Assembly: GCA_038141665.1 (NCBI GenBank)
Contig: JAYQIN010000002.1
Span: 3,604-67,603, forward strand
DNA length: 64,000 nt
From: Thiothrix sp.
GTDB lineage: Bacteria; Pseudomonadota; Gammaproteobacteria; Poriferisulfidales; GCA-002705445
Reading direction: 5' to 3'
The notes under the pieces were generated by a model. It had not been told where the DNA came from. It was given only the letters and a program-made list of their open reading frames with translations, and searched no databases. This document shows positions 16,309 to 39,825 of this stretch, piece by piece; the first letter of the stretch is position 1, and the number at the start of each line of letters is the position of its first letter. Made by a program: the position numbers and the translations under genes.

Positions 16309-16837
16309 GTGGCGTTAAATATTGGTGAAAAAAAAGATGTAGTAAAAGAGATTTCTGATATTGCATCGTCTGCTCAGTCTGCAGGTAGCAGCAGAGTACA
16401 GAGGTTTAACTGTTCAAGAGCTTTCTACATTAAGAGATAATGCTAGGAATCTTGGTGTTTATGTTAAAGTTATTAAAAATAGTTTAGCTAAGATTGCTAT
16501 CAAAGATACTAGCTTGGAATGTATGGACTCCTCTTTAAAGGGTCCCTTGATTTTTGCTTTTTCTAAAGAAGATCTTGGATCAGCAGCAAAACTAGTTAAT
16601 GACTTTAAAAAAGAGAATCAGTTATTAAAGCCAGTAGTTGTTGCTGTAAATGGAGAATTAGTAGATGTCGACAAATTAAGTCAGATAGCTGCATTACCAA
16701 ATAAAGATCAGGCAATAAGTATGCTCATGTCTGTTATGAAAGCACCAATAGAAAAACTTACACGAACATTGGCAGCGCCAAATGTAAAATTAGTTCAAAC
16801 ACTTTCAGCATATAAAATAAAACTAGAGCAAAATTAA
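16309..16837 (+). CDS. rplJ: 50S ribosomal protein L10, apparent +1 frameshift (extra G near 16384) in this sequence
   Basis: GTG start with GGAG Shine-Dalgarno gives VALNIGEKKDVVKEISDIASSAQSA in frame 1. It continues as VAAEYRGLTVQELSTLRDNARNLGVYVKVIKNSL in frame 2. Both halves are colinear with E. coli L10. Confidence 0.8.
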
Positions 16838-16872
16838 CAAAATTTATTTAAGTTTATACTTAGGAGAGTAAA

Positions 16873-17256
16873 ATGGCAGTATCAAAAGAAGATATTTTAG
16901 AATCAATTTCTAATATGAGCGTCATGGATGTTGTGGAGCTTGTAGAAGCTATGGAAGAAAAGTTTGGAGTTTCAGCAGCGTCTGTCGCAGCCGCTCCAGC
17001 AGCAGCTCCAGGTGGAGCAGCACCCGCTGAAGCAGCAGAAGAACAATCAGAGTTTACAATTAAAATGAGTAGCTTTGGATCAAATAAAGTTGCAGTAATT
17101 AAAGTTGTAAGAGCCATCACCGGACTTGGTTTGAAAGATGCTAAAGATATGGTTGAGGGAGCACCAGTAACTGTAAAAGAAGGTGTTTCTAAGCAAGAGG
17201 CTGATGAAGCAAAAAAACAATTAGAGGAAGCTGGAGCAACTGTTGAGCTCAGTTAA
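16873..17256 (+). CDS. rplL: 50S ribosomal protein L7/L12
   Basis: 127 aa, Ala/Pro hinge [20 protein letters not shown]-terminal [25 protein letters not shown]. Confidence 0.95.
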
Positions 17257-17287
17257 ATTTTTTTATAAAATTTGTATAGAAGATGCT

Positions 17288-17330
17288 AGTAACTTTTTTG
17301 TTACTGGCATATTTTTGTTTTTTTAATATT
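17288..17330 (+). terminator. rplL-rpoB intergenic attenuator/terminator hairpin
   Basis: AGTAAC-TTTTTT-GTTACT hairpin followed by a T-rich tract. Classic attenuator position. Confidence 0.55.
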
Positions 17331-17347
17331 AATACTTAAGGGTCATT

Positions 17348-20300
17348 ATGGAATATACATATACAGAAAAGAAAAGAATCAGAAAAAATTTTGGTAAAAG
17401 GAAGCAGGTTATCGATATACCTCCTATGCTAGACATACAAACCGATTCTTATTCTGACTTTTTGAGCACAAGTGCAAATATTGAGACAAGATCTATTTCA
17501 GGGCTGCATAAGGCTTTTCATTCTGTTTTTCCAATAATTAGTCATTCAGGCCATGTAAGACTAGAGTATATTGACTACTCTGTTGGTACACCAATATTTA
17601 ATGTCCAAGAATGCCAATTGAGAGGACTTACCTACGCTGCCCCGTTAAAAGTTTTGATGAGACTAGTTATATGCGAAAGAGATAATCCTGAAAAAGTAAA
17701 AGACATTAAAGAACAAGAAGTTTTTATGGGCGATATACCATTAATGACTAATAAAGGTTCGTTTGTTATAAATGGTACTGAAAGGGTTGTTGTTTCTCAA
17801 CTTCATAGATCACCAGGAGTTTTCTTTGATCATGATAAAGGTAAAACTCATTCTTCTGGTAAATTATTATATTCAGCTAGAATAATTCCTTATCGTGGCT
17901 CATGGTTGGACTTTGAGTTTGACCCTAAAGATGCATTATTTGCAAGAATTGATAGGAAAAGAAAATTACCTGCAACTATATTGTTAAGGGCCTTGGGTTA
18001 TGAAACTAATGAAATAATAGACTTATTCTTTGAAAAAGATGAAATAAAAATTGAAAAAGATTTATTCAAACTTAAGTTGATTCCTGAAAGATTGAAAGGA
18101 ACAATTGCCAGCGACGAACTAAAAATTAAAAATAAGGTATTAATTGAAAAAGGAAAAATATTTAATGCAAGACATGTAAAGATGTTGCAAGATGCAAAAA
18201 TCGAGTATCTTCCAATAAGCGAAGAGTATTTATATGGAAAAATTATTGGTCAAGATATTTTAGATGAAGAGACCGGCGAAATAATTGTTTCTCTAAACAC
18301 AACAATAGATCATGAGAATATCGATTTAATAAAAAAATTAAACTTAAATGGCTTTGAAATTTTATTTACAAACGAAATTGATAATGGTCCTTACATATAT
18401 AACACATTATTAATAGATCCATCTACAAATCAATTAGAAGCACAAGTTGAAATATACAAGATGATGAGACCTGGTGAACCTCCAACTAAAGATGCGGCTC
18501 AAAATCTTTTTACAAACCTTTTCTTCGTCGAAGAAAGATATGATCTCTCTGAAGTAGGTAGAATGAAGTTCAATGCTCGCTTAGATAAAAATAATAGTTC
18601 AGAGGGAGTTCTAAATAAAAATGATATTGTTGACGTCATTAAAGAATTGGTAAATATAAGAAATGGCAATGGAACTGTTGATGACATAGATCATCTTGGA
18701 AATAGAAGAGTTCGTTCTGTTGGAGAAATGATTGAAAATGTTTACCGAGTTGGATTAGTTAGAGTTGAAAGAGCAGTTAAGGAAAGATTAACCATCGCAG
18801 AATCCGAAGGTTTAATGCCGCAAGAGTTAATTAATGCAAAACCAGTAATGGCAGCAATTAAAGAATTTTTTGGATCTAGCCAGCTTTCTCAGTTTATGGA
18901 TCAAAATAATCCTTTGTCAGAAATAACACATAAAAGAAGAATATCTGCTTTAGGCCCAGGTGGTTTAACTAGAGAAAGAGCAGGCTTTGAAGTTAGAGAT
19001 GTTCACCCTACACATTATGGAAGAGTTTGTCCGATAGAAACTCCTGAAGGTCCAAACATCGGTTTAATTAACTCATTGGCTGTATTTTCTAGAACTAATA
19101 AGTATGGATTCCTTGAAACACCTTATAGAAAAGTAATTAATTCAAAAGTAACTTCTGAAATAGAATATTTATCTGCTATAGATGAATCAAAATATGTTAT
19201 TGCTCAAGCTAACGCTGAATTAGATAAAAAAGGAAAATTTACTGATGATTTTGTTTCTTGCAGACATTTAAATGAATTTATGATGTCAACTCCAGAAAAG
19301 ATTGATTATATTGATGTTTCTCCAATGCAAATTGTCTCCGTAGCATCATCTGTAATTCCATTTTTAGAGCATGACGATGCCAACAGAGCTCTTATGGGAT
19401 CAAATATGCAAAGACAAGCTGTACCAACATTAATTGCCGAAAAACCGCTAGTTGGAACTGGAATGGAAAGAGCAATCGCAAGGGATTCTCATGCTGCACT
19501 TATAGCTAATAGGGGTGGAAAAGTTGATAGCGTAGATGCAGGCAGAATAGTTGTAAGAGTTAATGATTCAGAAACTACATCTGAAGAAGCTGGTGTAGAT
19601 ATATATAACTTAACTAAATATACAAGATCAAATCAGAATACTTGTATAAATCAAAGACCTCTTGTTAAAGTTGGTGATATTATTGCTAAAAATGATGTTC
19701 TTGCGGACGGACCATCTACTGATCTTGGCGAACTTGCACTTGGCCAAAATATGTTAATAGCTTTTATGCCATGGAATGGATATAACTTTGAAGATTCTAT
19801 TTTAATATCAGATAGAGTTGTAGAGGAAGATAGATTCACAACAATCCATATAGAAGAATTAACATGCATTACTAGAGATACAAAGTTAGGAGCAGAAGAA
19901 ATTACTGCTGATATTCCAAATGTAAGCGAGAGTTTACTGGGTAAGTTAGATGAGTCAGGAATCGTTTACGTCGGAGCTGAAATAAGTCCTAACGATATAT
20001 TGGTTGGAAAAGTAACACCGAAAGGTGAAACGCAACTTTCTCCTGAAGAAAAATTGTTGAGAGCAATATTTGGAGAAAAAGCCTCTGATGTAAAGGACAC
20101 TTCTCTAAGAGTACCTTCGGGAATTGAAGGAACGGTTATAGATGTGAGAGTGTATACTCGCGATGGAATAGATAAAGATGATAGATCTCTTGATATTGAA
20201 AAAGAACAAGTTGAATTAGCTAAAAAAGATATCGCAGATCAATTAAGAATTTATGAAGATGATATTTTATTTAGAGTAAAAAACTTAATTTTAAATAAAG

Positions 20301-21424
20301 TTTCTGAAGGAGGTCCTAATAATCTTAAAAAAGGAGATAAAGTTACGGAAGTTTATTTAGATAATCTTGATAAAACTAATTGGTTAGATATTAGAATAAG
20401 AGATGAGAAAATAAATGTGCAGTTAGAAAAATTGGCAAAACAATTAGCAAAACAAAAAGTTAATTTAAAAGAAACTCTTGAAAGACAAGAAGCAAAAATA
20501 ACTGCAGGCGGCGACCTTTTGCCTGGAGTTTTGAAGATAATCAAAGTTTATTTAGCTGTGAAAAGAAGACTTCAGCCTGGTGACAAAATGGCTGGACGTC
20601 ATGGAAACAAAGGAGTTATTTCTATGATTGTTCCAGTTGAAGATATGCCGCATATGGAGGATGGCACACCTGTAGATGTTGTTTTAAATCCTTTAGGTGT
20701 TCCCTCAAGAATGAATGTTGGTCAGGTTTTAGAAACTCATTTAGGTTGGGCTGCAAAAGGTTTGGGAATAAAAATTGGAAAAATGTTAGACAAAGATACA
20801 CCTATAAAAACTATTAGATCTTTCTTAGAAACTGTATATAGCGTTGGTGCAAATGAAAAAACTAGTCTAAAAGATTTTACAGATGAAGAAATTAAAAGCC
20901 TTGCGAATAATTTAAGAAATGGTGTCCCAATGGCAACCCCTGTTTTTGATGGCGCACATGAAAATGAAATTAAGGAGATGTTAAAATTAGCTGATCTCCC
21001 AGAGTCAGGTCAAGCAAAACTTATTGACGGAAGAACTGGGGAGTATTTTGATCGTGAAACCACAGTTGGATATATGAATGTTCTGAAATTAAATCATTTG
21101 GTTGATGATAAAATGCATGCTAGGTCGACTGGGCCATACAGTCTTGTAACTCAGCAACCTTTGGGCGGTAAAGCTCAATTTGGCGGGCAAAGATTTGGAG
21201 AAATGGAAGTTTGGGCATTAGAAGCATATGGCGCCGGGTATACTCTTCAAGAAATGCTGACAGTCAAGTCTGATGATGTGAGCGGAAGAAATAAAATGTA
21301 TAAAAATATTGTTGATGATTCTCAAAGTATTGATGCTGGAATGCCAGAATCTTTTAATGTATTGATGAAAGAGATTAAATCTTTAGGAATAAATATTGAA
21401 CTTGAAAAGGATGAAAGCAAATGA
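17348..21424 (+). CDS. rpoB: DNA-directed RNA polymerase beta subunit
   Basis: 1358 aa, single intact ORF. Confidence 0.97.
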
Positions 21425-24400
21425 AAGATCTAATTAGTTTTTTTAAACAACAAACAGATACCGACGACTTTGATGCAATTAAAGTCGGACTTGCATCACC
21501 TGAAATGATTCGATCTTGGTCTTATGGAGAAGTTAAAAAACCTGAGACTATAAATTATAGAACTTTCAAACCTGAAAGAGATGGTCTATTTTGTGCGAAA
21601 ACTTTTGGCCCTATAAAAGACTATGAGTGTCTATGTGGAAAATATAAAAGGCTTAAGCACAGAGGTGTTGTTTGTGAAAAATGTGGCGTTGAAGTAACGC
21701 TTACAAAAGTAAGAAGAGAAAGGATGGGCCATATAGAGTTAGCATGTCCTGTTGCTCATATATGGTTCTTAAAATCACTTCCATCAAGAATAGGCTTATT
21801 GCTTGATATGACTCTTAGAGATATTGAAAGAATTTTATATTTTGAAGCTTTTGTAGTTATTGATCCAGGTTTTACTGAATTAGATAAATGTCAATTGCTT
21901 TCTGATGAAACTTATTATGAAGCTATTGAACAATATGGAGACGAGTTTGTAGCAAAAATGGGAGCTGAAGCAATTCTAGATATGCTTGATGATCTTGATT
22001 TAAATCAAGAAACAGAGAAGCTTAGAGAAGAATTATCCTCGACCAAGTCTGAAGCAAAAATAAAAAGACTTACAAAAAGATTAAAATTAGTTGAGTACTT
22101 TATTAGCTCTGGAAATAAACCTCAATGGATGATTTTAAGAGCACTTCCAGTTTTACCACCTGATCTAAGACCTCTCGTTCCTCTTGATGGAGGAAGATTT
22201 GCAACATCTGATTTAAATGATCTATATAGAAGAGTTATAAATAGAAATAATAGACTTAGAAGGTTATTAGAGCTTAACGCTCCTGATATCATCGTAAGAA
22301 ATGAAAAAAGAATGCTTCAAGAAGCAGTTGATGCTTTACTAGATAATGGCAGAAGAGGAAGAGCTATAACAGGAAGTAACAAGAGACCTCTAAAATCTTT
22401 AGCAGAACTTATTAAAGGAAAACAAGGTAGATTTAGACAAAACCTGCTTGGAAAACGAGTAGATTATTCTGGCAGATCTGTAATTGTTACTGGCCCAACA
22501 TTGATGCTTCATCAATGTGGAATACCAAAAAAAATGGCACTAGAGCTTTTCAAGCCTTTTATATTTAGTAAGCTTCATACAAGAGGTTTGGCTACTACTA
22601 TTAAAGCCGCTAAAAAACTTGTTGAAAAAGAAGGTGCTGAAGTTTGGGATATTCTTGATGAGGTTATAAGAGAACATCCTGTTTTATTAAACAGAGCACC
22701 AACTCTTCATAGGTTAGGTATACAGGCATTTGAACCAATGTTAATTGAAGGAAAAGCTATACAATTACACCCGCTTGTATGTGCTGCATTTAATGCTGAT
22801 TTTGACGGAGACCAGATGGCCGTTCATGTTCCTTTATCAGTTGAGGCTCAGTTAGAAGCTAGATCTTTAATGATGTCTACAAATAATATTTTATCGCCTG
22901 CAAATGGTGAGCCAATTATTGTTCCATCACAGGATATAGTTTTAGGAATTTATTACTTAACAAGAGAAGATATAAATGTCCAAGGTGAAGGCATGATTTT
23001 CTCTGATATAGACGAAGTATCTCGTGCATATTACTCTGGTAATGTTCATATACATGCAAAGGTTACAGTACGAATGAATATTGTAGAGTCTGATTCAAAG
23101 GAAAGTGTAAACAAGAGAGTAGAAACAACTGTCGGAAGAGCGCTTTTTTCAAAAATACTTCCAAAGGGTTTGCCGTTTGAGCTTGTTAATAAAACCATGG
23201 ATAAGAAGTCTATATCCAGCGCTATAGACACTTGCTATAGGGTTCTTGGTTTAAAAGCAACTGTAATATTTGCAGACCAATTAATGTATATGGGATATGA
23301 GTATGCTACGAAATCAGGAGTATCATTTTGTTTAGATGACATGATTATACCAGAATCAAAAAGTAAAATTCTTTCTGAAGCTGAAACAGAAGTCAAAGAA
23401 ATTGAAATGCAATATCAGTCAGGCTTAGTAACTCGAGGAGAAAGATATAATAAAGTTGTAGACATTTGGTCAAAAACAAATGACCAAGTTGCAAAAGCCA
23501 TGATGAGCAAATTAGGAAAAGATGTAAAAAATAATTCTGAAGGAAAAGAGATAGAACAACCATCATTCAATTCAATATTTATGATGGCTGATTCTGGAGC
23601 AAGAGGTTCGGCTGCTCAAATAAGACAATTGGCCGGAATGCGTGGATTAATGGCTAAGCCTGACGGGTCAATAATAGAGACACCAATAACAGCTAACTTC
23701 AGAGAGGGCTTAAATGTGCTGCAGTACTTTATATCGACTCATGGAGCAAGAAAGGGTTTAGCTGATACAGCTTTAAAAACAGCTAACTCAGGTTACTTAA
23801 CAAGAAGGCTGGTTGATGTTGCTCAAGATTTAGTTGTTTCGGAAGTAGATTGCGGAACAAAAGAAGGAGTTGTGATTAAGCCTATAATTGAGGGTGGAGA
23901 TATAACTGTCCAGTTATCCGAAAGAGTTCTGGGAAGAGTAATTGTAGAAGATGCAGTTTCACCAATTAATAAAGATTATATTTTAAAGTCCGGAACACTT
24001 ATAGACGAAAAAATAGCACAAGAACTAGATATTAATGGTATAGATGAAATTAAAGTTAGAACAGCTATTACTTGTGAACTAAAATATGGTGTTTGTTCGA
24101 TGTGCTACGGAAGAGATCTAGCACGAGGACATTTGGTAAATATTGGAGAATCAGTTGGTGTAATGGCAGCACAATCTATTGGTGAGCCTGGAACGCAATT
24201 AACTATGAGAACATTTCACATTGGTGGAGCGGCAAGTGGGTCCGTAGCTACAAATAGTATTATGGTTAAATCAAATGGAATAATAAAATTTAAAAAAATT
24301 AAAACAATTCAAAAAAAAGACAAAACAAATGTAACTATAACAAGATCTGCAGAACTAGCTGTTGTTGATGAAGACGGAAGGCAGAAAGAATTTTATAAAG

Positions 24401-25611
24401 TCCCGTATGGTTCAACTTTAAGTGTAAACGAAGGAGATAAAGTTGAGCCTGGTCAAACTATTGCAACTTGGGATCCACATACTAGACCAATAGTTACAGA
24501 GCAAGCTGGTAAAGCAAAGCTTATTGATTTTGAAGATGGCGTTACAGTAAATAAAAAGACTGACGAAATCACTGGTTTATCGTCAACAATTGTAATAGAT
24601 TCAAAAAATAGAACAGGTGCAAAAGATATTAAGCCAATAATTCAGCTTTCTAATTCAAAAGGAAATGTTGATTACAATTTGCCTGATGGGGCAATTATAA
24701 CATTATCTGATGGAGACAAAGTTGAAGCAGGTGATATTATTGCCAGAATTCCTCAAGCCGTAACAAAAACAAAAGATATAACAGGTGGTTTGCCAAGAGT
24801 TGCTGATTTATTTGAAGCTAGAAAACCAAAAGAACCAGCTATATTAGCGGAATCTTCAGGCGTTGTTAGTTTTGGTAAAGAAACCAAAGGAAAACTAAGA
24901 CTTGTAATCACAAATGATTTAGGAGAAAGCACTGAAACATTAATCCCTAAATATAGGAACATAAATATATATGAAGGTGAAAGTATAGAAAAAGGTGAGA
25001 TAGTGGTGGATGGAGAACTTACCCCACATGATATATTAAGATTACTTGGAATTCCTGCACTCGCAGATTATTTAGTGACAGAAGTTCAAAATGTATATAG
25101 GTTGCAAGGAGTTAAAATTAATGACAAACACATTGAAGTTATAGTTAGACAGATGTTAAGAAAAGTCGAAATTTTAAAACCAGGAGATTCAAGTTATTTG
25201 GCAGGAGAGCAAGCTGAAAGAGCAAATGTTTTAGAAGAAAATAAGAAATTATTAGCTGAAAATAAAGAACCAATTATATTTGATCCTGTTTTATTAGGAA
25301 TAACAAAAGCATCTTTAGTTACTGAATCATTTATTTCGGCAGCATCTTTCCAAGAAACAACTAGAGTGTTAACTGAAGCAGCTGTTAAAGGAGCAAGTGA
25401 TAGCTTAAAAGGGTTGAAAGAAAATGTTGTAGTTGGAAGACTTATTCCAGCAGGCACAGGATTAGATTTTCATAAAGAAAGAAAATTATCTAGAGCAGCA
25501 ATTTCAAGTGAGGTTTCTTTAGAGGATTCGGTCACAGAATCTAGCGAAGATATTATGCAAAAAGAAATGTCAGAAGTTGTGGCAGATGAAAAAGGGGTTA
25601 TTTCAGAATAA
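21421..25611 (+). CDS. rpoC: DNA-directed RNA polymerase beta' subunit
   Basis: 1396 aa, NADFDGD catalytic motif, intact. Confidence 0.97.
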
Positions 25612-25680: not shown

Positions 25681-26063
25681 ATGACAACAATTAATCAGTT
25701 AGTTAGAAAACCTAGAAAAACAAAGAAGGCAAAAAGTACTGTGCCTGCCTTAGAGTCATGCCCTCAAAAAAGAGGAGTATGTGTACTAGGGTTTATACAA
25801 CAACTCCAAAAAAACCAAACTCGGCATTAAGAAAGGTTGCTAGAGTTAAATTAACTAATGGTTTTGAAGTCACAAGTTATATAGGTGGTGAGGGCCATAA
25901 TCTTCAGGAACACTCCGTTGTACTTTTAAGAGGAGGACGTGTTAAAGATTTACCCGGAGTAAGATATCACATTGTTAGAGGAAGTTTAGATACACAAGGC
26001 GTTGAAAATAGAAAACAAGGAAGATCAAAGTACGGCGCTAAGAAAGCAAAAACAAAAAAATAA
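25681..26063 (+). CDS. rpsL: 30S ribosomal protein S12, apparent frameshift (2-bp GT insertion near 25781-25784)
   Basis: [34 protein letters not shown] in frame 1 then [21 protein letters not shown] in frame 0. Junction reads gtatgtGTactagg versus expected gtatgtactagg. Confidence 0.8.
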
Positions 26064-26069
26064 AAAATT

Positions 26070-26543
26070 ATGTCTAGAAGAAGAGAAGTACCAAAAAGAG
26101 AAATATTGCCTGACCCAAAGTTTGGCGATGTTCAGTTAGCTAAGTTTATAAATGCTTTAATGATGCATGGTAAAAAATCAGTTGCTGAAAATATAATCTA
26201 CGACGCTCTTGATGAACTAGCTAAAAAAACAAATTCAAAAGATGGTTTGCAAGTTTTAAATAAAGCTTTGGAAAATGTTCGTCCACAGGTTGAAGTAAAA
26301 TCAAGAAGAGTTGGTGGTGCAACATACCAGGTTCCTGTAGAAGTAAAATCGTCAAGGCAAAATACATTAGCAATGAGATGGCTAATTGATTCAGCAAGAA
26401 AGAGAAATGAAAAATCAATGATGCGTAAACTTGCTGCTGAAATTTTAGATGCATCTGAAAATAAAGGTGCAGCAATGAAAAAACGCGAAGATACATTGAA
26501 AATGGCAGAAGCTAACAAAGCATTTTCACATTTTAGGTGGTAG
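26070..26543 (+). CDS. rpsG: 30S ribosomal protein S7
   Basis: 157 aa S7 homolog. Confidence 0.9.
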
Positions 26544-26556
26544 CCAAGGAAAAAAA

Positions 26557-28653
26557 ATGTCAAGAGAAACACCCTTAGAAAGATATCGTAATATTGGAAT
26601 AATGGCTCATATTGATGCTGGAAAAACTACCACATCAGAGAGAGTTTTATTTTATACCGGTCTTTCACACAAAATTGGTGAGGTTCACGATGGAGCAGCA
26701 ACAATGGATTGGATGGAACAAGAGCAAGAACGTGGAATTACTATAACGTCTGCAGCAACAACTTGCTTTTGGCAGGGTATGGATAAAAATTTTGATCAGC
26801 ATAGAATTAATATTATAGACACACCCGGACATGTCGACTTTACAATTGAAGTCGAAAGATCACTAAAGGTTTTAGATGGAGCTTGTGCAGTTTTTTGTGC
26901 AGTAGGTGGAGTAGAGCCTCAATCTGAAACCGTTTGGAGACAAGCCTCAAAATACAATGTTCCAAGAATGGCTTTCGTTAACAAAATGGATAGATCAGGA
27001 GCTGATTTTCTAAGAGTTGTAAATCAAATCAAAGAAAGATTAGGATCAAATGCAATCCCGATTCAAATACCCATCGGCGCCGAAGATAATTTTAAAGGAG
27101 TTGTAGACCTAATTAAAATGAAAGCCATTTACTGGAATGAAGATGACATGGACACAACTTATGAGGAAAAAGATATTCCAGAAGATCTTCAAGAAGTTTG
27201 TAATAAGTACAGAGAGGAAATGGTTGAAGCTGCTGCAGAAGCAAATGAAGAATTAATGGAAAAATACTTAAATGAAGGAGATTTAACTTCTGAAGATATT
27301 CACAACGGCCTAAGAATTAGAACATTGTCAAATGAAATTGTTCCAGCATTATGTGGTTCTGCTTTTAAGAATAAGGGTGTTCAAGCTATGTTAGATGGTG
27401 TTATAAGATATCTTCCGTCACCATTAGATATTCCTGCAATTAAAGGTATAAACGAAAGTGAAGAAGAAATAGAAAAAAAGGCGTCAGATGACGAAGGATT
27501 TTCTGCATTAGCTTTCAAGATTGCTACTGATCCTTTTGTTGGAACTTTAACTTTTTTTAGAGTTTATTCAGGAGTTTTGTCAGCCGGTTCAGCAGTTACA
27601 AACTCTACAAAAGGAAAAAAAGAAAGAGTTGGTAGAATCTTACAGATGCACTCTAATTCAAGAGAAGAAATTAAAGAAGTGAGAGCTGGAGACATTGCTG
27701 CCGCAGTTGGGTTAAAAGATGTTACTACTGGTGACACACTTTGCGATCCATCAAAATTAGTTACACTAGAAAGAATGGAATTTCCAGAGCCAGTTATTGC
27801 TGTTGCTGTAGAGCCTAAGACTAAGGCTGACCAAGAAAAAATGGGAATAGCTTTACAAAAATTAGCTCAAGAAGATCCATCTTTTAGGGTAAAAACTGAT
27901 GAAGAATCTGGGCAAACAATTATTTCAGGAATGGGTGAATTACACCTAGAAATTATTGTAGACAGAATGAAAAGAGAATTTAGTGTTGAAGCAAATGTTG
28001 GAGCACCTCAAGTAGCTTACAGAGAGTGTATAAGAAAACCTGTTGAACAAGAAAGTAAATTTGTTAGGCAAAGTGGTGGAAGAGGGCAATATGGCCATGT
28101 GTATTTAAAAATTGAACCTCAGGAAGCCGGCAAAGGATATGAATTTATAAATGAAATTGTAGGTGGAGCAATACCAAGAGAATATATACCAGCTGTTGAC
28201 AAAGGAATACAAGAGCAAATGTTAAACGGAGTAATAGCCGGATACCCTGTAGAAGATGTCAAGGTAACTCTATATGATGGCACATTTCACGATGTTGATT
28301 CCTCAGAAATGGCATTTAAAATCGCTGGCTCAATGGGTTTTAAAGAAGGCGCACAAAAAGCTGACCCAGCTTTACTTGAGCCTGTAATGAAAGTAGAGGT
28401 TGTAACGCCAGAAGATTACATGGGTGATGTTGTTGGTGATTTAAATAGAAGAAGGGGTATAATTGGTGCTATGGAGGACAGCCCTGCTGGTAAAGTAATA
28501 AGAGGAGAAATACCTCTTAAAGAAATGTTTGGTTATGCGACTGATTTAAGATCAGCAACACAAGGAAGAGCTACCTATTCAATGGAGTTTTCTAAATACA
28601 TGGAAGCACCTAGAAATATTGCAGATGAAATAATAAATAAACACTCAGGATAA
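26557..28653 (+). CDS. fusA: elongation factor G
   Basis: 698 aa, [10 protein letters not shown], intact. Confidence 0.95.
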
Positions 28654-28658
28654 AAAAA

Positions 28659-28990
28659 TTGGCTAAGAAATCTGAAAACACAGCAAATCAAAATATTCGA
28701 ATTAAACTTAAGGCATTCGATCACAAGTTAATTGATCAGTCTGCAGTTGAAATCGTAGAGACTGCGAAAAGAACAGGGCAAGAGTTAAAGGCCCAATACC
28801 ATTACCAACAAAAATGGAAAGATTTACAATTTTGGTCTCGCCGCATGTAGATAAGGATGCAAGAGACCAGTATGAAATTAGGACGCATAAGAGAATTATG
28901 GATATATTGGATCCTACAGATAAGACTGTAGATGCTCTTATGAAGTTAGATTTAGCAGCTGGTGTTGACGTACAAATCAAGCTAAATTAA
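28659..28990 (+). CDS. rpsJ: 30S ribosomal protein S10, apparent frameshift (1 G missing from GGG run near 28790)
   Basis: [44 protein letters not shown] then, in the next frame, [66 protein letters not shown]. Confidence 0.8.
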
Positions 28991-30357: not shown

Positions 30358-30653
30358 ATGGATACAAATAGTTTGTCAAAAGTTATTTTAATGCCTCATG
30401 TTTCAGAAAAATCAGTAATGATAGCTGATAATGTAAAACAACAAACATTTAAAGTGGCATCATATGCAACTAAGAATGACGTAAAAGAAGCAATTGAAAA
30501 ATTATTTGATGTTGAGGTTGTTAATGTAAATATATTAACTGTCACTGGAAAAAATAAAGTTTTTGGAAGAACAAAAGGCAAAAGAAAAAATTATAAAAAA
30601 GCTTATGTGACCTAAAAGAAGGACAAGATATAGATCTTGGAGGGAATAGTTAA
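30358..30653 (+). CDS. rplW: 50S ribosomal protein L23, apparent frameshift (T missing near 30613) creating a premature TAA
   Basis: ORF stops at ...KKAYVT*. Shifting one base restores [13 protein letters not shown], matching the E. coli L23 C-terminus VTLKEGQNLDFVGG. Confidence 0.7.
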
Positions 30654-30655
30654 TT

Positions 30656-31492
30656 ATGGCTACAATATTACAGAAACCAACTTCTCCAGGAAAAAGATTT
30701 ACAGTAACTGTTAAGACAGAAGGTCTTCACAAAGGTAAACCATATTCAAAACTTCTTCAAAAAAAATCTAAAACAGGCGGAAGAAATAATAGCGGAAAAA
30801 TTACAACTAGACATGTCGGCGGAGGCCATAAACAAAAATATAGAGTTATTGACTTCAAAAGAAATAAACATGACGTGCCAGGTAAAATAGAAAGGCTTGA
30901 GTATGATCCAAATAGATCAGCGCATATAATGCTAGTTCTTTATAACGATGGTGAAAGACGGTATATAATAGCGCCGAACAAATTAAAAGTTGGAGATGAA
31001 ATTCAGTCTGGGAATAACGTGCCAATTAAAGTTGGTAATTGTATGCCATTAAGCCAAATTCCATTGGGTACTAGTATTCACTGTGTAGAAATGAAGCCAA
31101 ATAAAGGCGCACAAATTGCAAGAAGTGCTGGGTCTTCAGTTCAATTAGTTGCAAAGGACGGACCATATGCATTGATTAGACTTCGCTCAGGTCAAATGAG
31201 AAAAATTCCACAAGAGTGCGTCGCAACAATTGGTGAAGTTTCAAATCCAGAGCATAATTTAGCAAAACTTGGAAAAGCTGGTGCTAAGAGATGGAGAGGA
31301 GTAAGGCCGACTGTAAGGGGTGTTGCTATGAACCCGGTAGATCATCCTCATGGAGGAGGTGAAGGTAAAACATCTGGGGGAAGACATCCTGTTTCACCTT
31401 GGGGAACTCCAACAAAAGGTTTTAAAACTAGATCAAATAAAAGAACTGATCATTTAATTATTAAGAAGAAAAAAATAAGCAGAGAAATATAA
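30656..31492 (+). CDS. rplB: 50S ribosomal protein L2
   Basis: 278 aa, intact. Confidence 0.95.
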
Positions 31493-32770: not shown

Positions 32771-33186
32771 ATGTTGCAGCCAAAAAAAACAAAATACCGT
32801 AAGCAACAGAAAGGTAAAAATAGAGGTTTAGCTTTAAGAGGCTCAAAAGGTTAGCTTTGGTGAGTATGGCTTAAAAGCAATAAGCAGAGGAAGGCTAACT
32901 GCAAGACAAATAGAGTCTGCAAGAAGAGCTATGACAAGACATATTAAGAGAGGTGGAAAAGTTTGGATACGAGTATTTCCTGATGTTCCAATAACTAAGA
33001 AACCTTTAGAAGTTAGACAAGGAAAGGGAAAAGGAAATGTGGAGTATTGGGTTGCAAAAATTCAACCAGGAAAAGTACTTTATGAAATGGAGGGTGTTGA
33101 CGAGAGTGTTGCAAGGCAAGCCTTTCAAACTTGCAGCTGCAAAACTTCCATTTCAGACGCAATTTGTTATTAGAACAATAATGTAG
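32771..33186 (+). CDS. rplP: 50S ribosomal protein L16, two apparent 1-bp insertions (near 32849 and near 33126)
   Basis: [26 protein letters not shown], then [45 protein letters not shown]...ARQAF, then [19 protein letters not shown]. All three pieces are colinear with E. coli L16 but sit in three frames. Confidence 0.75.
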
Positions 33187-33191
33187 GATAA

Positions 33192-33645: not shown

Positions 33646-34014
33646 GTGATTCAGGTTCAAACAGTTTTAACAGCAGCAGACAACAGTGGAGCAAAAAAGA
33701 TCCAATGTATCAAAGTGCTTGGTGGATCTAAAAGAAGATATGCAAAAATAGGAGACATAATTAAAATTAGTGTTCAAAGTGCAATACCAAGAGGAAAAGT
33801 TAAAAAAGGTGAAGTTTTAAATGCAGTTGTAGTCAGAACATCAAAAGGTGTAAGAAGAGATGATGGATCATTGATAAAATTTGATACGAATGCCGCAGTT
33901 TTATTAAATGCTCAGCTGCAGCCAATTGGAACAAGAATATTTGGCCCAGTAACTAGAGAATTAAGAAATGAAAAATTTATGAAAATTATTTCGTTAGCAC
34001 CAGAAGTATTATAG
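33646..34014 (+). CDS. rplN: 50S ribosomal protein L14 (GTG start)
   Basis: 122 aa, near-identical C-terminus to E. coli L14. Confidence 0.9.
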
Positions 34015-34024
34015 GAAGTAAGTT

Positions 34025-34342
34025 ATGAATAGATTAAAAAAAGGTGACCAGGTTTATATTATTTCTGGCAAAGACAAGGGAAAACTAGGAACAATTTCTC
34101 AAGTTGTAAATGAAGAGCGAATTTTAGTGGATGGTATTAACATGGCAAAAAAACATGTTAAGCCAAATCCAAATAAAAATGAAACTGGTGGAGTTGTAGA
34201 AAAAGAAATGCCAATACATATATCAAATGCAATGATATATAACGTAAAGACAAAAAAGCCAGACAGAGTTGGGATTTTAAAATTAAAAAATGATAAGAAG
34301 GTTAGGGTTTACAAATCAACAGGGGAACAGATTGATTTATGA
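34025..34342 (+). CDS. rplX: 50S ribosomal protein L24
   Basis: 105 aa KOW. Confidence 0.9.
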
Positions 34343-34881
34343 GTAGCAGACTAAAAAAAATTTATAACGAGGAAATAAAAAATTCATTACAAGAAAAAAT
34401 GAAATACAAATCCTCTATGGAAATACCTTCTATAAGAAAGATCACAATAAATGTTGGGCTTGGGCAAGCTGTAAAAGAAAAAAAAGTAATTGAACAGGCT
34501 GTAGGTGATATTGAAAAAATTACTGGGCAGAAGCCAATAGTAACAAAAGCAAAAAAATCTATTGCAGCGTTTAGTTTAAGAGAAGGAATGCCAATTGGGT
34601 GCAAAGTTACTTTAAGAAAAGACAGAATGTATGAATTTTTGGATCGTTTAATAACTATAGCTATTCCAAGAATTAGAGATTTTAGAGGTTTTTCTAAAAA
34701 ATCATTCGATGGAAGAGGTAATTATACTTTAGGAATTAAAGAACAAATTATTTTCCCTGAAATTGATTATGAAAAGATAGACAGTATTAGAGGCCTAGAT
34801 ATTGCAATTACAACATCTGCAAAAAACGACGATGAGGCCAGATTATTACTTGAAGAATTTAACTTTCCTTTTAGGAGATAA
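34339..34881 (+). CDS. rplE: 50S ribosomal protein L5
   Basis: 180 aa. Confidence 0.9.
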
Positions 34882-34883
34882 AT

Positions 34884-35189
34884 ATGGCTAAAGCATCCAT
34901 GATAGAAAGAGAAAAGAAAAGAATAAAGTTAAGTAAAAAACTTTTTGAAAAAAGAAGAGTATTAAAAGAAATATTGAATAGCCAAGATGCTTCAATAGAT
35001 GAAAAACTTGAGGCATCAATGAAATTACAAAAGCTTCCAAGAGATTCAAGTTTAAGCAGAGTAACAAACAGATGCGCAATAACAGGAAGACCAAAAGGAT
35101 TTTATAGAAAGTTTGGATTAGGAAGAATTAAAGTGAGAGAGGCTGCAATGAGAGGAGATATTCCGGGACTAGTTAAAGCTAGTTGGTAA
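34884..35189 (+). CDS. rpsN: 30S ribosomal protein S14
   Basis: 101 aa. Confidence 0.9.
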
Positions 35190-35202
35190 TGGAGAAAATA
35201 TT

Positions 35203-35601
35203 ATGAGCATGAGTGATCCAATAGCAGGAATGCTAACAATAATAAGAAATGGACAAATGGTGAATAAAACCTTTGTTTGTACTGATATGTCCAAAACAAA
35301 AGAATCAATATTGTCAGTGCTAAAAGATGAGGGTTACATACTTGACTATGAGGTCAAAGATACAGAAAACAACAAGAAAAGATTAAAAATTAAACTAAAA
35401 TATTTTCAAGGAAAGCCAGTAATTAGTAATATAAAAAGAATAAGTAAGCCAAGTTTAAGAATATATAAAAGTAAAAACGACCTGCCTAAGGTGTTGAATG
35501 GCCTAGGAGTAGCAATAGTTTCAACTTCAAAGGGAGTTATGACTGCGGATGCTGCTAGGAAAGAAAATTCTGGCGGTGAAATTTTATGTACAGTGGAGTA
35601 A
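35203..35601 (+). CDS. rpsH: 30S ribosomal protein S8
   Basis: 132 aa. [17 protein letters not shown]. Confidence 0.9.
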
Positions 35602-35605
35602 TAAA

Positions 35606-36130
35606 TTGTCAAGAGTAGCGAAAAAACCTGTTCAAATTCCAAATGGTGTTGATATAACCATTAAAGATAATTTGATTTCATTTAAGGGCCCAAAAGGCGA
35701 AATGTCGATGGGTTTACATGACAGCGTTCAGATAAAAAAAGATGATAGTGTTATTACCGTAGAGATTAATGAAAAAAATAGCGCTATGGCTGGAACCATG
35801 AGATCACTTATAAACAACAATATTGTAGGTGTTAGTGAAGGATATGAAAAGAAATTAAACCTTGTTGGCGTGGGGTACAAAGCAGAAGTGAAAGATAAGA
35901 AATTGCATTTAGCTTTAGGCTTTTCTCACCCAGTAGTTTATGAATATGAAAGTGAGATTGAAATAACAACACCTTCGCCTACAGAAATTGTAGTTAAAGG
36001 TATAAATAAACAAAGAGTAGGACAGATTTCAGCAGAAATAAGAGCTTTTAGACCACCAGAGCCTTATAAAGGCAAAGGTGTGAAATATAGTGACGAAAAT
36101 ATAATTAGAAAAGAGGCTAAAAAGAAATAG
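35606..36130 (+). CDS. rplF: 50S ribosomal protein L6 (TTG start, GGAG Shine-Dalgarno)
   Basis: (M)SRVAKKPVQIPNGVDITIKDN... The ORF-track start at 35549 is upstream read-through inside rpsH. Confidence 0.85.
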   Translation: MSRVAKKPVQIPNGVDITIKDNLISFKGPKGEMSMGLHDSVQIKKDDSVITVEINEKNSAMAGTMRSLINNNIVGVSEGYEKKLNLVGVGYKAEVKDKKLHLALGFSHPVVYEYESEIEITTPSPTEIVVKGINKQRVGQISAEIRAFRPPEPYKGKGVKYSDENIIRKEAKKK

Positions 36131-36132
36131 AA

Positions 36133-36483
36133 ATGAAAAATAAGCATGCAAGACTAAAGTCAGCAAAAAAAATAAGATCTAAAATTTTGCCAAGTGAAAA
36201 GCACAGATTGACTGTATTCAAGACAGCTATGCATACGTATGCTCAACTATATTCTCCTGCAGGGGAAATCGTAGTTTCAGCCTGTACTTTAGAAAAAAGT
36301 ATAATAAGCAAAAAAGAACATACTGGAAATATTGAAACAGCAAAAATTATAGGAAAAGTAATAGCTGAAAGAGCTATTAAAAAAAATGTAACAGAGGTTG
36401 CATTTGATAGAAGTGGTTTTAATTATCATGGAAGGATTAAAGCGCTAGCTGAGTCTGCTAGAGAAAGTGGATTAAAATTTTAA
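36133..36483 (+). CDS. rplR: 50S ribosomal protein L18
   Basis: 116 aa. Confidence 0.9.
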   Translation: MKNKHARLKSAKKIRSKILPSEKHRLTVFKTAMHTYAQLYSPAGEIVVSACTLEKSIISKKEHTGNIETAKIIGKVIAERAIKKNVTEVAFDRSGFNYHGRIKALAESARESGLKF

Positions 36484-36495
36484 CAGAGAAAAAAA

Positions 36496-37023
36496 ATGTC
36501 AACAAATATAGATAAATACCAAGGCAGTGAAGAATTATTAGAAAAGCTAGTAAAGGTTAATCGTGTTGCTAAAGTTGTTAAAGGTGGAAGGCAATTTGGT
36601 TTTACTGCATTAACTGTTGTGGGCGATGGAAATGGAAGAATTGGTTTTGGTTATGGCAAGGCTAAAGAAGTACCATTGGCAATACAAAAAGCTATGGAAA
36701 AAGCGAGAAGAGATATGACAAAAGTATCAATTATAAATAGTACTCTACATTATCCCTTAGTAGGCAAACATGGTGCAGCAAGAGTTTATATGCAGCCAGC
36801 ATCTGATGGTACTGGAATTATTGCTGGTGGAGCAATGAGAGCAGTGTTTGAAGTTGTCGGTATAAATAATGTTTTGGCAAAATGCATCGGAACAACAAAC
36901 CCAATAAATATAGTTAAAGCAACTATTAATGGTTTAAGATCTGTTCAATCTCCGCAATATGTTTCAAACAAACGTGGAAAAACAATAGAACATATTTTAG
37001 GTATAGAAGATGACAAAGATTAA
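36496..37023 (+). CDS. rpsE: 30S ribosomal protein S5
   Basis: 175 aa. Confidence 0.9.
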
Positions 37024-37186
37024 AATAACATTAGTAAAAAGCTTGTCCGGAAGATTAAAAGCTCATCAAGCTTGCGCGAAAGGTCTTGGAATAAAAAAAA
37101 TACATAAGACCATAGAGGTAAATGATACGCCTGAAAATATGGGGATGATAAATAAAATTAATTACTTATTAAAAATTGAGAAATAA
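37010..37186 (+). CDS. rpmD: 50S ribosomal protein L30 (below the ORF-track size cutoff)
   Basis: [58 protein letters not shown], 58 aa. Overlaps the rpsE stop by 14 nt. Confidence 0.8.
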
Positions 37187-37188
37187 CA

Positions 37189-37615
37189 ATGGAACTTAAT
37201 ACAATAGCACCTGAAGTTAAAAAGAAAAATGCCAAAAGAGTTGGAAGGGGAATCGGTTCTGGGAATGGAAAAACCTCAGGAAGAGGCCATAAGGGGCAAA
37301 AATCAAGAGCTGGTGGTTATCATAAAACCGGATTTGAAGGTGGGCAAATGCCCTTGCAAAGAAGATTGCCAAAAGTTGGTTTTCACCTCTAGAAAAGATG
37401 ATACTGCTAGGGTAAGACTTGGCGAACTAGAATTTAATGGAAATGAAAATATTACGATCGATGTTCTTAAAGAAAAGAAAATAATTTCTCACAAAGTAAA
37501 AAATGTAAAAGTTTTTTTATCAGGAGAGATAAAAAATAAAATCAATCTCAAAGGAATTAACGTAACTAGAGGCGCAAGAAAAGTTATAGAAGATTTAGGT
37601 GGAAAAATAACATAA
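37189..37615 (+). CDS. rplO: 50S ribosomal protein L15, apparent 1-bp T insertion in the T-run at 37380-37383
   Basis: [43 protein letters not shown]...[13 protein letters not shown] then, in the next frame, [12 protein letters not shown]...[14 protein letters not shown]. The two ORF-track entries (37189-37392 and 37229-37615) are one gene. Confidence 0.8.
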
Positions 37616-37620
37616 TAATT

Positions 37621-38896
37621 ATGGAAGAATTACGAAAAAGATTATTTTTTGTTTTTGGTGCAATTCTAGTTTATAGAATCGGCACATACATACCAGTACC
37701 TGGAATAAATCCAGCTGCACTAGCTTCTTTTTTTGAGCAACAAAGTGGAACAATAATCGATATGTTTAATATGTTTTCTGGCGGTGCATTAGAGCGTTTC
37801 AGTATTCTTGCTTTAGGAATTATGCCTTACATATCAGCTTCAATTATTATGCAACTAATGTCAGCAACAATGCCAACTCTCAAAGAGATTAAAAAACAAG
37901 GAGAATCAGGAAGAAAGAAAATAACTCAATATACTCGTTTTGGAACATTGGGTTTAGCAACACTTCAGGCTGGAGGAGTTGCAGTTGCTCTTCAATCTCA
38001 AGGTATAGCTTTGTATAGTGGCTCTGGTTTTGTTTTTTCAACAATTGTAACTCTCGTAACTGGAACTATGTTTTTAATGTGGTTGGGCGAGCAAATTTCA
38101 GAAAAAGGCATTGGAAATGGGATATCAATAATTATATTTATAAGTATAGTGTCAGGATTACCAACTGCAGTAGGAGGCACACTAGAGTTAGCAAGCACCG
38201 GAGAGTTAAATTCAGCGCTAGTAGTTATGATTTTAGTATTAGCAATTGCAGTTACAGCATTTGTTGTATTTATAGAGCGAGGACAAAGAAAAATTACTGT
38301 GAATTATGCAAGAAGGCAGCAAGGAAGAAAAATGGTTCAAGCACAGTCCAGTTACTTACCATTAAAACTTAATATGGCAGGAGTTATCCCACCAATCTTT
38401 GCATCAAGTATTATATTATTTCCATCAACATTGGGTCAGTGGGCAGGCTCTGCTGAAAGTATGAGTTGGTTAAAAGACTTATCTTCAACATTAGCTCCAG
38501 GGCAGCCCTTATATGTAACTTTTTATGCTGCGGCAATTATATTTTTCTGTTTTTTCTACACAGCTCTAGTTTATGATTCTCGAGAAACCTCAGATAACTT
38601 AAAGAAATCTGGCGCCTCTATTCCAGGTGTGAGACCAGGAGAACAAACATCTAAATATATAGATAGCGTATTAACAAGGCTTACAGCTGTTGGAGCAATA
38701 TATATAACTTTGGTCTGTCTACTTCCTGAATTTTTAATTATAGGGCCTTAATGTTCCGTTTTACTTTGGGGGAACTTCACTATTGATTATCGTTGTAGTT
38801 ATAATGGATTTTATAGGCCAACTTCAATCGCATATGATGAATTATCAATATGGAAGTTTAATGAAAAAATCTAATTTACAGGGTTATAAAAGATGA
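37621..38896 (+). CDS. secY: preprotein translocase SecY, apparent 1-bp insertion in the GGGCC run near 38743-38747
   Basis: 376-aa ORF ends ...LPEFLIIGP*. The next frame reads (L)[48 protein letters not shown], matching the E. coli SecY C-terminus [20 protein letters not shown]. Confidence 0.8.
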
Positions 38897-39006
38897 AAGT
38901 AAGAGCGTCAGTTAAAAAAATATGTAGAAATTGCAAGATCATAAGAAGAAATAGAGTGATCAGAGTAATATGTGTAAATCCAAGGCACAAACAAAGGCAA
39001 GGATAA
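38893..39006 (+). CDS. rpmJ: 50S ribosomal protein L36
   Basis: [37 protein letters not shown] (37 aa). ATGA overlap with the secY stop. Confidence 0.85.
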
Positions 39007-39064
39007 TAATGATTGAAGAAATCAACCATATTGTTAGAATACAGGACATTTTTTAGGAAAAATT

Positions 39065-39421
39065 ATGGCTAGAATAGCAGGAATAAACGTTTCAGATAAT
39101 AAGCATGCTGTTATTGCTTTACAAGCAATATATGGAATAGGCCCCACTAGAGCGCAAGATATTTGCGAAATATCTAAAATAAAGCCATCTACAAAAATTA
39201 AAGAGTTAACTGAAGCTGAATTAGAAATTTTAAGAACAGAGGTTGCAAAATATAATATTGAAGGTGATCTTAGAAGAGAGGTTACCCTTAACATTAAAAG
39301 ACTAATGGACCTTGGAACTTATAGAGGAATTAGACATAGAAAAGGCCTGCCTTTAAGAGGCCAAAAAACAAAAAATAACTCTAGAACAAGAAAAGGCCCG
39401 AGAAAGGCTATAAGAAAATAA
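39065..39421 (+). CDS. rpsM: 30S ribosomal protein S13
   Basis: 118 aa. Confidence 0.9.
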
Positions 39422-39434
39422 ACAGGATTTTTTA

Positions 39435-39825
39435 ATGGCAAAAACAAACTTAAAAACTAAAAAGAAAAGTAAAAAAGTAGTAAATGACGGCATAGCAGTT
39501 ATTAATTCAACTTTTAACAATACTATTAGTAACCATTACTGATAGACAGGGAAATACACTTTGTTGGGCTACAGCAGGTGGGTCCGGTTTTAGAGGCTCT
39601 AGAAAAAGCACCCCTTTTGCTGCGCAAGTTGCAGCAGAAAAAGCTGGAAATTTAGCAAAAGAATATGGTTTGAAAAATTTAGTAGTTCTAGTTAAAGGGC
39701 CTGGACCAGGAAGAGAGTCAGCTGTTAGAGCATTGAATAATATAGGTTACAAAATTTCAGATATAAACGATGTTACTCCGATTCCACATAATGGTTGTAG
39801 ACCACCTAAAAAAAGGAGAGTATAA
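39435..39825 (+). CDS. rpsK: 30S ribosomal protein S11, apparent 1-bp C insertion at CC 39533-39534
   Basis: [33 protein letters not shown] then, in the next frame, [38 protein letters not shown]...[12 protein letters not shown]. Confidence 0.8.

Follow-up and report, generated by a model that had tools for sequence, protein, structure and literature searches.

Frameshifts in ribosomal-protein genes and secY of a gammaproteobacterial metagenome contig: probable consensus errors of mixed-strain assembly

The DNA analysed here, hereafter the window, is a stretch of 64,000 nucleotides of contig JAYQIN010000002.1 (assembly GCA_038141665.1), in which several ribosomal-protein genes and secY are split between reading frames, whereas rpoB, rpoC, fusA and tuf are open throughout. 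The question raised by this locus is whether the organism really carries such lesions in genes of this kind, or whether they arose on the way from the cells to the deposited sequence.

Frame switches in the ribosomal-protein region

A preliminary description made from the sequence alone had reported nine frame switches between positions 16,309 and 39,825, one each in rplJ, rpsL, rpsJ, rplW, rplO, secY and rpsK and two in rplP. Three-frame translation confirmed all nine. Alignment to intact relatives placed each of them within 0-14 nt of the position first given, although the lesion of rpsJ is at 28776-79 and not 28790, and that of rpsK at 39526-29 and not 39533-34. The same interval contains a tenth event, absent from that description, which is an extra A at 31469 in rplB. 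Nor did that description mention that an intergenic T run is shortened at 17258 or that many frameshifts follow beyond 39.8 kb. The events between 16 and 40 kb are as follows.

rplJ (L10), 16309..16837, plus strand: one extra base at 16383/4, where the window reads GC[A][G]GTA
Intergenic T run directly after the rplL stop codon, 17258..17264, no strand: T7 in the window, T8 in 5 close contigs
rpsL (S12), 25681..26063, plus strand: 2-bp TG/GT insertion at 25780-25783
rpsJ (S10), 28659..28990, plus strand: one G lost from a G4 run at 28776-28779 (G4 to G3)
rplW (L23), 30358..30653, plus strand: one base lost at 30612/13, where the window reads ACC-TA
rplB (L2), 30656..31492, plus strand: extra A at 31469 (A6 to A7)
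rplP (L16), 32771..33186, plus strand: two +1 insertions, at 32849 (AAA[A][G]GTT) and 33126 (TT[T][C]AAA)
rplO (L15), 37189..37615, plus strand: one extra base at 37381-37384, where the window reads GGTTTT[C]ACC
secY, 37621..38896, plus strand: one extra base at 38743-38746, where the window reads GG[G][C]CTT
rpsK (S11), 39435..39825, plus strand: one extra base at 39526-39529, where the window reads ATT[A][G]TA

We compared these sites with metagenome contigs of the same population, which come from different samples and sources (ENA, JGI and NCBI) and have 94-99% nucleotide identity. At each of the ten sites in genes, the indel is missing from all of the 7-13 independent contigs available, and no lesion is common to any relative, including one at 98-99% identity. 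When species-representative genomes were scanned with fusA, the closest among the matches listed had 78% amino-acid identity. Exact matches to the window's own products of fusA, tuf, purM and ssb and of a 271-aa open reading frame (58889-59704) were sought, and none is on record. A literature search on the accession numbers of the related contigs returned nothing relevant.

One edit per site restored full-length proteins in all ten cases, with no internal stops and no additional indels. The repaired proteins are 98-100% identical to intact orthologues, although the DNA of the contigs differs by about 5% (about 95% identity): L10 has 175 aa and is 100% identical to the orthologue in contig L088, and the corresponding values are 126 aa and 99.2% for S12, 110 aa and 98.2% for S10, 98 aa and 98% for L23, 137 aa and 100% for L16, 141 aa and 98.6% for L15, and 129 aa and 98.4% for S11. 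Repaired SecY (424 aa) is 100% identical to protein P0001, which 7 contigs carry intact. In rplB, the extra A abolishes the stop codon and adds 5 codons (278 aa against 273 aa); 8 contigs have A6, and the repaired protein has 273 aa, as in the relatives. The only exception to the absence of secondary lesions is an in-frame TAA near 61531 in a pgsA-like gene, where the errors of the window are densest. Thus, the earlier preference for sequencing or assembly error over pseudogenes or recoding is strongly supported, since every indel is private and the one-edit repairs give nearly identical proteins. The window sequence does contain these broken genes for ribosomal proteins and SecY, but, judged by these comparisons, none of the breaks is biological.

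Damage of the same kind is found at other places in other long contigs of the population, namely the "..._pilon" contigs L081, L083 and L098 and the NCBI metagenome-assembled genome (MAG) GCA_038143975.1 (JAYQMX01). In these, rpoB, fusA, rplC, rplE, rpsC, secY, rpoA and other genes are frameshifted.

Strain polymorphism and run length at the error sites

The preliminary description had placed the errors mostly at short runs of one base. This was not borne out; most of them are merged or dropped alleles at sites that are polymorphic between strains. We scored an insertion as carrying both alleles when the window shows, side by side, the base of one haplotype and that of another (xy for x and y). 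Among the seven single-base insertions, five (both sites in rplP, and those in rplO, secY and rpsK) combine in this way the two alleles of a SNP by which two known haplotypes of the population differ, and rplJ is a sixth if a more distant lineage is used. A random insertion would give this pattern 4.0% of the time, because 7.9% of the sites are polymorphic; the excess has a probability of P = 2e-6 for five of seven and P = 3e-8 for six of seven.

In rplP, the haplotypes are AAAAG and AAAGG at 32849 and TTT and TTC at 33126, and the window carries both alleles at each site. In rplO, JAYQMX reads TTT-ACC and the others TTC-ACC, and the window holds both T and C. Among 13 contigs, the haplotypes at the secY site are GGG, GGC and GGT, and at the rpsK site, also covered by 13 contigs, ATT-ATA is found in JAYQMX and ATT-GTA or ATA-GTA in the others. 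Seven contigs lack the extra base of rplJ; four of them read GCGGTA, and three, from the more distant lineage (82-86% identity) in which alone the alternative allele was seen, read GCAGTG. The rplW deletion and the 2-bp rpsL insertion likewise fall on SNPs that separate haplotypes. At the rplW site, the relatives have ACT-CTA, ACC-TTA or ACT-TTA where the window has ACC-TA, and thus the deletion lies on an adjacent CT/TC double SNP. In rpsL, the window sequence is GGAGTATGT+GTACTAGG, of which the left part fits haplotype GGAGTATGTACA and the right part fits GGTGTGTGTACT; therefore, the +2 insertion, which is missing from 8 contigs, falls on a GTA/GTG SNP in a (GT)n context.

The first suggestion, that these are plain homopolymer-length miscalls (from 454, Ion Torrent or unpolished Nanopore reads) with no mixture of strains, is improbable in the light of these sites. 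Classic run-length errors, in runs of 4-8 nt, account only for the coding events in rpsJ (G4 to G3, with GGGG in 10 contigs), rplB (A6 to A7) and uvrA (T8 to T7), and for the intergenic change from T8 to T7 at 17258. Several other sites in the window resemble GG, CC or TT runs, but they do so because the two alleles adjoin an identical base. The long A/T runs should be the main targets of such miscalls, yet only 3 of the 272 A/T runs of at least 5 nt between 16 and 49 kb are wrong (about 99% correct), apart from one lineage-specific difference, and none of the nine sites first described falls in such a run. Furthermore, the rpsK insertion (A between T and G) does not extend a run in comparison with the nearest haplotypes, nor does an insertion at 61514 in the pgsA-like gene (G between T and A) in comparison with contig L100, its sole reference. 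The 2-bp rpsL insertion is not homopolymeric, and the coincidence with SNP sites would be left unexplained. Flow-space averaging of the 454 type, in which the flow order is TACG, was also considered for the insertions with both alleles. It fits several sites, but the G before A at 61514 is against the flow order.

Intact genes and the distribution of errors

The following genes had been named as free of indels, and rpoB, rpoC and fusA served as controls.

rpoB, 17348-21424, plus strand: single intact open reading frame of 1358 aa, of the same length in contigs L088 and L090
rpoC, 21421-25611, plus strand: single intact open reading frame of 1396 aa, of the same length in L088 and L090
fusA, 26557..28653, plus strand: intact, 698 aa, the same in L088-L094
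tuf, 12757-13947: intact single open reading frame of 396 aa

All four were found intact, with lengths as in the relatives, and tuf lies outside the interval in which it had been counted. The only paired indel in rpoBC, at 20824/20827, has a net change of 0, and since it is identical in contig L090, it represents a real haplotype. The expectation of about 5 events in rpoBC was too high, because the rate had been taken over affected genes only; with the regional rate, 2-3 events are expected, and the clean rpoBC is weakly surprising (P = 0.03-0.13). About 430 sites in rpoBC separate the two reference haplotypes, and yet no artefact is found there. For this, our model offers only chance, at the above probability, or differences in strain mix, coverage or polishing that may exist locally.

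Nor is the damage limited to ribosomal-protein genes and secY, as had been thought. Downstream of 40 kb, the following genes are affected.

uvrA, 41852..44661, minus strand: one T lost from a T8 run at 42879 (T8 to T7)
DUF6513/DUF4346 pterin-binding gene, 52543..53956, minus strand: split into open reading frames of 257 aa and 221 aa that overlap at 53183-53208
nadD, rlmH and yhdP cluster, 54041..58892, plus strand: indels in comparison with JAYQMX, and frame changes in tblastn of JAYQMX proteins
pgsA-like CDP-alcohol phosphatidyltransferase gene, 61446..62003 (end approximate), plus strand: compared with contig L100
hda, 62000..62691, plus strand: one base lost at 62085

The uvrA site was compared in 4 contigs, and the repaired protein (936 aa) is 98.3% identical to the orthologue in L082. 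Between 49 and 58 kb there is a single reference, JAYQMX, which is itself error-prone, and an error was attributed to whichever copy does not keep the open frame. The split of the pterin-binding gene, where position 53196 is a C that JAYQMX lacks, is attributed to the window only tentatively, as this reference is itself fragmented. The nadD, rlmH and yhdP proteins are intact in JAYQMX. In tblastn, the frame of nadD changes from 2 to 1 at 54593 (A6 to A5) and that of rlmH from 3 to 1 at 55174. For yhdP, the N part runs through frames 2, 1, 3 and 2 and the C part through 1, 2 and 3, with at least 9 uncompensated indels within 55.7-57.75 kb. L100 was the only close contig (88.6% nucleotide identity) in a metagenome scan with purM. 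The pgsA-like gene has the insertion at 61514 (GT[G][A]CTT) and a deletion at 61770; L100 reads TAT in place of the in-frame TAA and has an intact reading frame of 185 aa. Adding the C of L100 to hda gives an open reading frame of 230 aa with an ATG start at 62000. Two further candidates were rejected as errors of the window: an extra C at 12396 in tRNA-Tyr, where the error belongs to JAYQMX, and an AA difference at 48532, which is a state shared by the lineage.

In total, the window contains at least 27 events. Their density ranges from zero in 1-16 kb to about 4 per kb in the yhdP stretch, which is the densest cluster and has 20-25% GC. The unevenness noticed earlier is thus real at the scale of the window (chi-square p = 1e-5); it sets regions apart, however, and not classes of gene.

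The idea of a mosaic region, in which contigs or reads of different strains were joined and the indels mark the joins, has very little probability. Identity to the nearest relative does range from 96 to 99.8% along the window, and the bases to the left and right of the rpsL insertion match different haplotypes. However, when the window was painted with JAYQMX-type (J) and ctg146332-type (H) alleles, no block switched at an indel, and the switch rate per informative site (0.25) was no faster than in the intact contigs L089, L090 and L092 over the same stretches (0.14-0.47).

Origin of the frameshifts and comparison with known systems

Very probably, the window is a draft metagenome consensus, and its frameshifts are consensus errors of mixed-strain assembly and not biology, because the indels are private, their repair gives perfect proteins and they coincide with polymorphic sites. 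Its contig would result from the collapse of several closely related strains, all of one streamlined marine gammaproteobacterium. The sequencing technology and the step at which the consensus or its polishing went wrong are inferred; most likely, the reads were indel-prone and short-read polishing was incomplete. At a SNP between the collapsed strains, the consensus would sometimes keep both alleles, giving a +1 insertion, and elsewhere it would keep neither allele or mis-register them, giving -1 or +2. A minority of the errors would be ordinary run-length miscalls (G4, A6 and T8). Each error would break a reading frame that living cells have intact.

Genuine mutations of the cells are about as improbable as a mosaic. 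The frameshifts are present in the sequence as given, and they could be real pseudogenes in a degenerating lineage or be tolerated through ribosomal frameshifting or transcriptional slippage. Frameshifts rescued by slippage at long poly(A) tracts are reportedly known in insect endosymbionts, from work said to be that of Tamas et al. in 2008. Against this stand at least 27 lesions in essential genes, nine ribosomal-protein genes and secY among them, none of which is shared with relatives; the amino-acid sequences that follow the lesions show no decay in any case, and most sites are without a long homopolymer. The inserted base is repeatedly the alternative allele of the population, which no mutational or recoding process predicts. 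Least credible of all is that a living lineage of this bacterium, which is very abundant, truly carries the indels; it would then express secY and nine ribosomal-protein genes by means of a frameshift tolerance that is pervasive and not tied to particular sites.

The frameshifts have no biological significance under a consensus-error origin, and their relevance is practical only. The window and, among public MAGs of the population, at least GCA_038143975.1 would give truncated or split calls of universal marker genes, including ribosomal proteins, secY, rpoB and fusA, and such calls can bias estimates of completeness, phylogenies built on marker genes and counts of pseudogenes. Wherever sister assemblies exist, a consensus artefact can be told from a real frameshift by a simple test that needs no reads, namely whether the inserted base is the other allele of a SNP in the population.

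In programmed +1/-1 frameshifting of the prfB or dnaX type, as in the window, a single-base change of frame occurs inside a gene of which both parts are conserved. Sites of programmed frameshifting persist from species to species, and each combines a defined slippery sequence with stimulators. In contrast, a search for a shared slippery motif in the window found none (the contexts are GCA-G-GTA, AAA-G-GTT, TTT-C-AAA, TTT-C-ACC, ATA-G-GGC and ATT-A-GTA), the directions of shift are mixed (+1, +2 and -1), and none of the sites was found in the orthologues of the relatives. The window also resembles the endosymbionts with poly(A) slippage in that its genome is AT-rich and small and its deposited essential genes are frameshifted. 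Slippage can rescue a gene only where the lesion falls in a long A/T tract, and lesions of that type are conserved, or vary, within real populations; in the window, however, only rplB (A7), uvrA (T7) and a few downstream sites are in runs, and no relative shares the lesions.

The closest likeness is to the indel errors of long-read and hybrid MAGs. A preprint on proovframe (10.1101/2021.08.23.457338) is said to describe residual indels and frameshifts in long-read or hybrid MAGs, with stress on homopolymers. Residual indels in the consensus of long-read assemblies lead to frameshifted gene calls, and metagenome bins of low coverage need short-read polishing (PMC9262707). As in those assemblies, isolated indels of 1-2 bp split otherwise perfect genes of the window; they are private to one assembly, their density varies along the contig, and the sister contigs are hit elsewhere. 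However, while both papers stress homopolymers, the long A/T runs of the window are largely correct, and most events in its ribosomal operons lie on polymorphic sites, where the consensus has both alleles or neither.

Frameshifts in the window

The frame switches were located by three-frame translation, and every switch that the preliminary description had listed in ribosomal-protein and secY genes was borne out at positions that were mostly accurate, although two were displaced by 5-14 nt. Haplotypes of the relatives were aligned at each indel site.

Indels at 16-40 kb of the window, with net change and, at six insertions, alleles
rplJ, 16383/4, +1; at 16383, relatives GCG (a more distant lineage, GCA), window GCAG
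intergenic run, 17258, T8 to T7
rpsL, 25780-83, +2
rpsJ, 28776-79, -1 (G4 to G3)
rplW, 30612/13, -1
rplB, 31469, extra A (A6 to A7), stop codon lost; a tenth site, newly found
rplP, 32849, +1; relatives AAAAG or AAAGG, window AAAAGG
rplP, 33126, +1; relatives TTT or TTC, window TTTC
rplO, 37381-84, +1; at 37381, relatives TTT-ACC or TTC-ACC, window TTTTC-ACC
secY, 38743-46, +1; at 38743, relatives GGG, GGC or GGT, window GGGC
rpsK, 39526-29, +1; at 39528, relatives ATT-ATA or ATT-GTA, window ATT-AGTA

As had been described, rpoB, rpoC, fusA and tuf are unbroken, each being a single ORF of the expected length, although tuf, at 12.8-13.9 kb, falls outside the interval (16309-39825) to which it had been assigned. 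At rpoB 20824-20827, the window has TCTTT-CTTAGAAAC and most relatives have TCTTTTCTT-GAAAC, a paired indel with a net change of zero; since contig L090 shares the window's state, this is a real haplotype. The same site reads TCTTTTCTTAGAAAC (+1) in JAYQMX010000001.1 (hereafter JAYQMX), whose rpoB is split exactly there.

The damage is not restricted to ribosomal-protein genes, as had been thought; the window has at least 27 lesions, nine of which were in the earlier list.

Lesions beyond the ribosomal-protein genes
uvrA, 42879, broken
pterin-binding gene (DUF6513/DUF4346), 53196, probably split
nadD, 54593, broken
rlmH, 55174, broken
yhdP, 55.7-57.75 kb, at least six frame changes and three further deletions
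pgsA-like gene, two indels and an in-frame TAA
hda, one deletion

The indel density is highest at 54000-58900, mostly as deletions of an isolated G or C in A/T context. Across the large yhdP-like gene of this stretch GC drops to 20-23%, and the JAYQMX call consists of 479-aa and 652-aa ORFs with a 4-nt overlap. The TAA of the pgsA-like gene (about 61531-61533) is TAT in contig L100; this only substitution-type lesion seen suggests that base-substitution errors also occur at the right-hand end of the window.

The source population and its intact genes

The window belongs to a low-GC gammaproteobacterium (about 33% overall, down to 20-29% beyond 50 kb) and has the usual operon order tuf-secE-nusG-rplKAJL-rpoBC, rpsL-rpsG-fusA and S10-spc-alpha. 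At 12324-14089, the single tuf gene has tRNA-Tyr, tRNA-Gly and tRNA-Thr on its upstream side and tRNA-Trp on its downstream side; at 25681-28990, no tuf copy is present in the str operon, and rpsJ directly follows fusA. SecY, repaired by removing one base and used as a search query, was 100% identical to a 424-aa SecY, with hundreds more matches at 96-99% in ENA, JGI, NCBI and Tara metagenomes. Contigs carrying these matches reach 1.06-1.11 Mb in some cases; thus, the window comes from a marine or estuarine population that is abundant and whose genome measures roughly 1.1 Mb.

Thirty relatives, taken from contigs around secY, rpsG, a ferredoxin gene, rpsM, corC and a DUF447 gene, covered window 1-62.5 kb. 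Most have 94-95% DNA identity to the window; for JAYQMX (NCBI MAG GCA_038143975.1), the figure is 97.9-99.2%. All genes are intact on the 270-kb ENA contig ctg146332 (loci L082 and L088), and likewise on relatives' contigs with short-read-assembly-like names. A strain-variable island (9563-11729) lies between a ferredoxin-NADP-reductase-like gene and psiE. In the window and JAYQMX it holds three genes (a MICAH-domain gene, an intimin/invasin-type IAT_beta gene and a 237-aa ORF), which a sulfate-transporter-family gene replaces in a sister lineage (L095, L097 and L099). The relatives of a four-gene cluster at 2490-7687 match Molydop_binding, Amidohydro_3, FTR/FTR_C (formylmethanofuran-tetrahydromethanopterin formyltransferase) and GXGXG, and 4HFCP_synth (methanofuran biosynthesis), DUF447 and the DUF6513/DUF4346 gene lie at 51300-53956. 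These C1-carrier genes suggest that this streamlined marine gammaproteobacterium, with its genome of roughly 1.1 Mb, has a formaldehyde or formate module linked to tetrahydromethanopterin.

The ten sites between 16 and 40 kb are each covered by 7-13 contigs, none of which has the indel. One edit per gene (two in rplP), as suggested by the relatives, yields proteins exactly as long as their orthologues and 98.0-100% identical to those of ctg146332. Since this identity holds despite a DNA divergence of about 5%, full purifying selection still acts on both halves of each gene.

Population alleles at the indel sites

At the six insertions with alleles in the list, the extra base corresponds to the alternative allele of a SNP dividing the known haplotypes, usually at the third codon position. 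Polymorphic positions make up 7.9% among the references, and a random insertion mimics this both-allele pattern 4.0% of the time; its occurrence in 5 of 7 insertions has P = 2e-6, and in 6 of 7, P = 3e-8. Furthermore, the rplW deletion is located on an adjacent CT/TC double SNP, and the rpsL insertion falls on a GTA/GTG SNP in a (GT)n context, where the left flank is of one haplotype and the right flank of another. Classic run-length errors were found only at rpsJ, rplB, uvrA (T8 to T7) and intergenic 17258, and 269 of 272 A/T runs of at least 5 nt in 16-49 kb have the correct length. The earlier reading as sequencing or assembly error was right, but its attribution to homopolymers was wrong. 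The best reading is that co-occurring strains were collapsed into one consensus in the window and that a consensus or polishing step put out both alleles, or neither, at some SNPs; the software or chemistry responsible is a matter of inference.

Uneven distribution and origin

The lesions are unevenly distributed, as had been proposed: uniformity was rejected for counts binned over 62.5 kb (chi-square p = 1e-5), with a peak in the 20-25% GC yhdP stretch and no coding lesions in 1-16.3 kb. However, the contrast with a clean rpoBC is much weaker than described. The expectation of five came from a rate based only on damaged genes; the 12 attributable events in 16.3-49.4 kb give 3.0 (P(0) = 0.03-0.05), and the 1-49.4 kb rate gives 2.0 (P = 0.13). 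The regional differences may plausibly stem from local short-read depth (e.g., GC bias where GC is 20%) and from local microdiversity. A special mosaic region had also been considered for this unevenness. Marking the window by JAYQMX-type and ctg146332-type alleles, the two best-sampled haplotypes, revealed neither a block structure nor switches at indels, and the allele-switch rate falls among those of the intact relatives L089, L090 and L092, so this idea is without support. Real pseudogenes are ruled out by the purifying selection on both halves and the number of essential genes affected. Programmed frameshifting is ruled out, as the sites are in no relative, have mixed directions (+1, +2 and -1) and share no motif.

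The feature is artefactual and stems from a draft consensus of a metagenome. Relatives including JAYQMX have frameshifts of their own at places other than the window's, in rpoB, fusA, rplC, rplE, rpsC, rpsH, secY, rpsK, rpoA and miaB, and some relatives' contig names end in '_pilon'; these observations suggest that some of the assemblies circulating for this population are error-prone ones built from long reads. JAYQMX itself (L087, L096, L180 and L189; 98-99% identical to the window) is frameshifted, at positions differing from the window's, in rpoB, fusA, rpsJ, rplD, rpsC, rpsH, secY, rpsK, rpoA, miaB, and also in genes for a 4HFCP synthase and a nitrilase-like protein. In practice, consensus error can be diagnosed without reads where an insertion matches an alternative allele of the population. 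Frameshifted gene calls are known to arise from residual indels in long-read consensus, and polishing is needed for low-coverage bins (PMC9262707).
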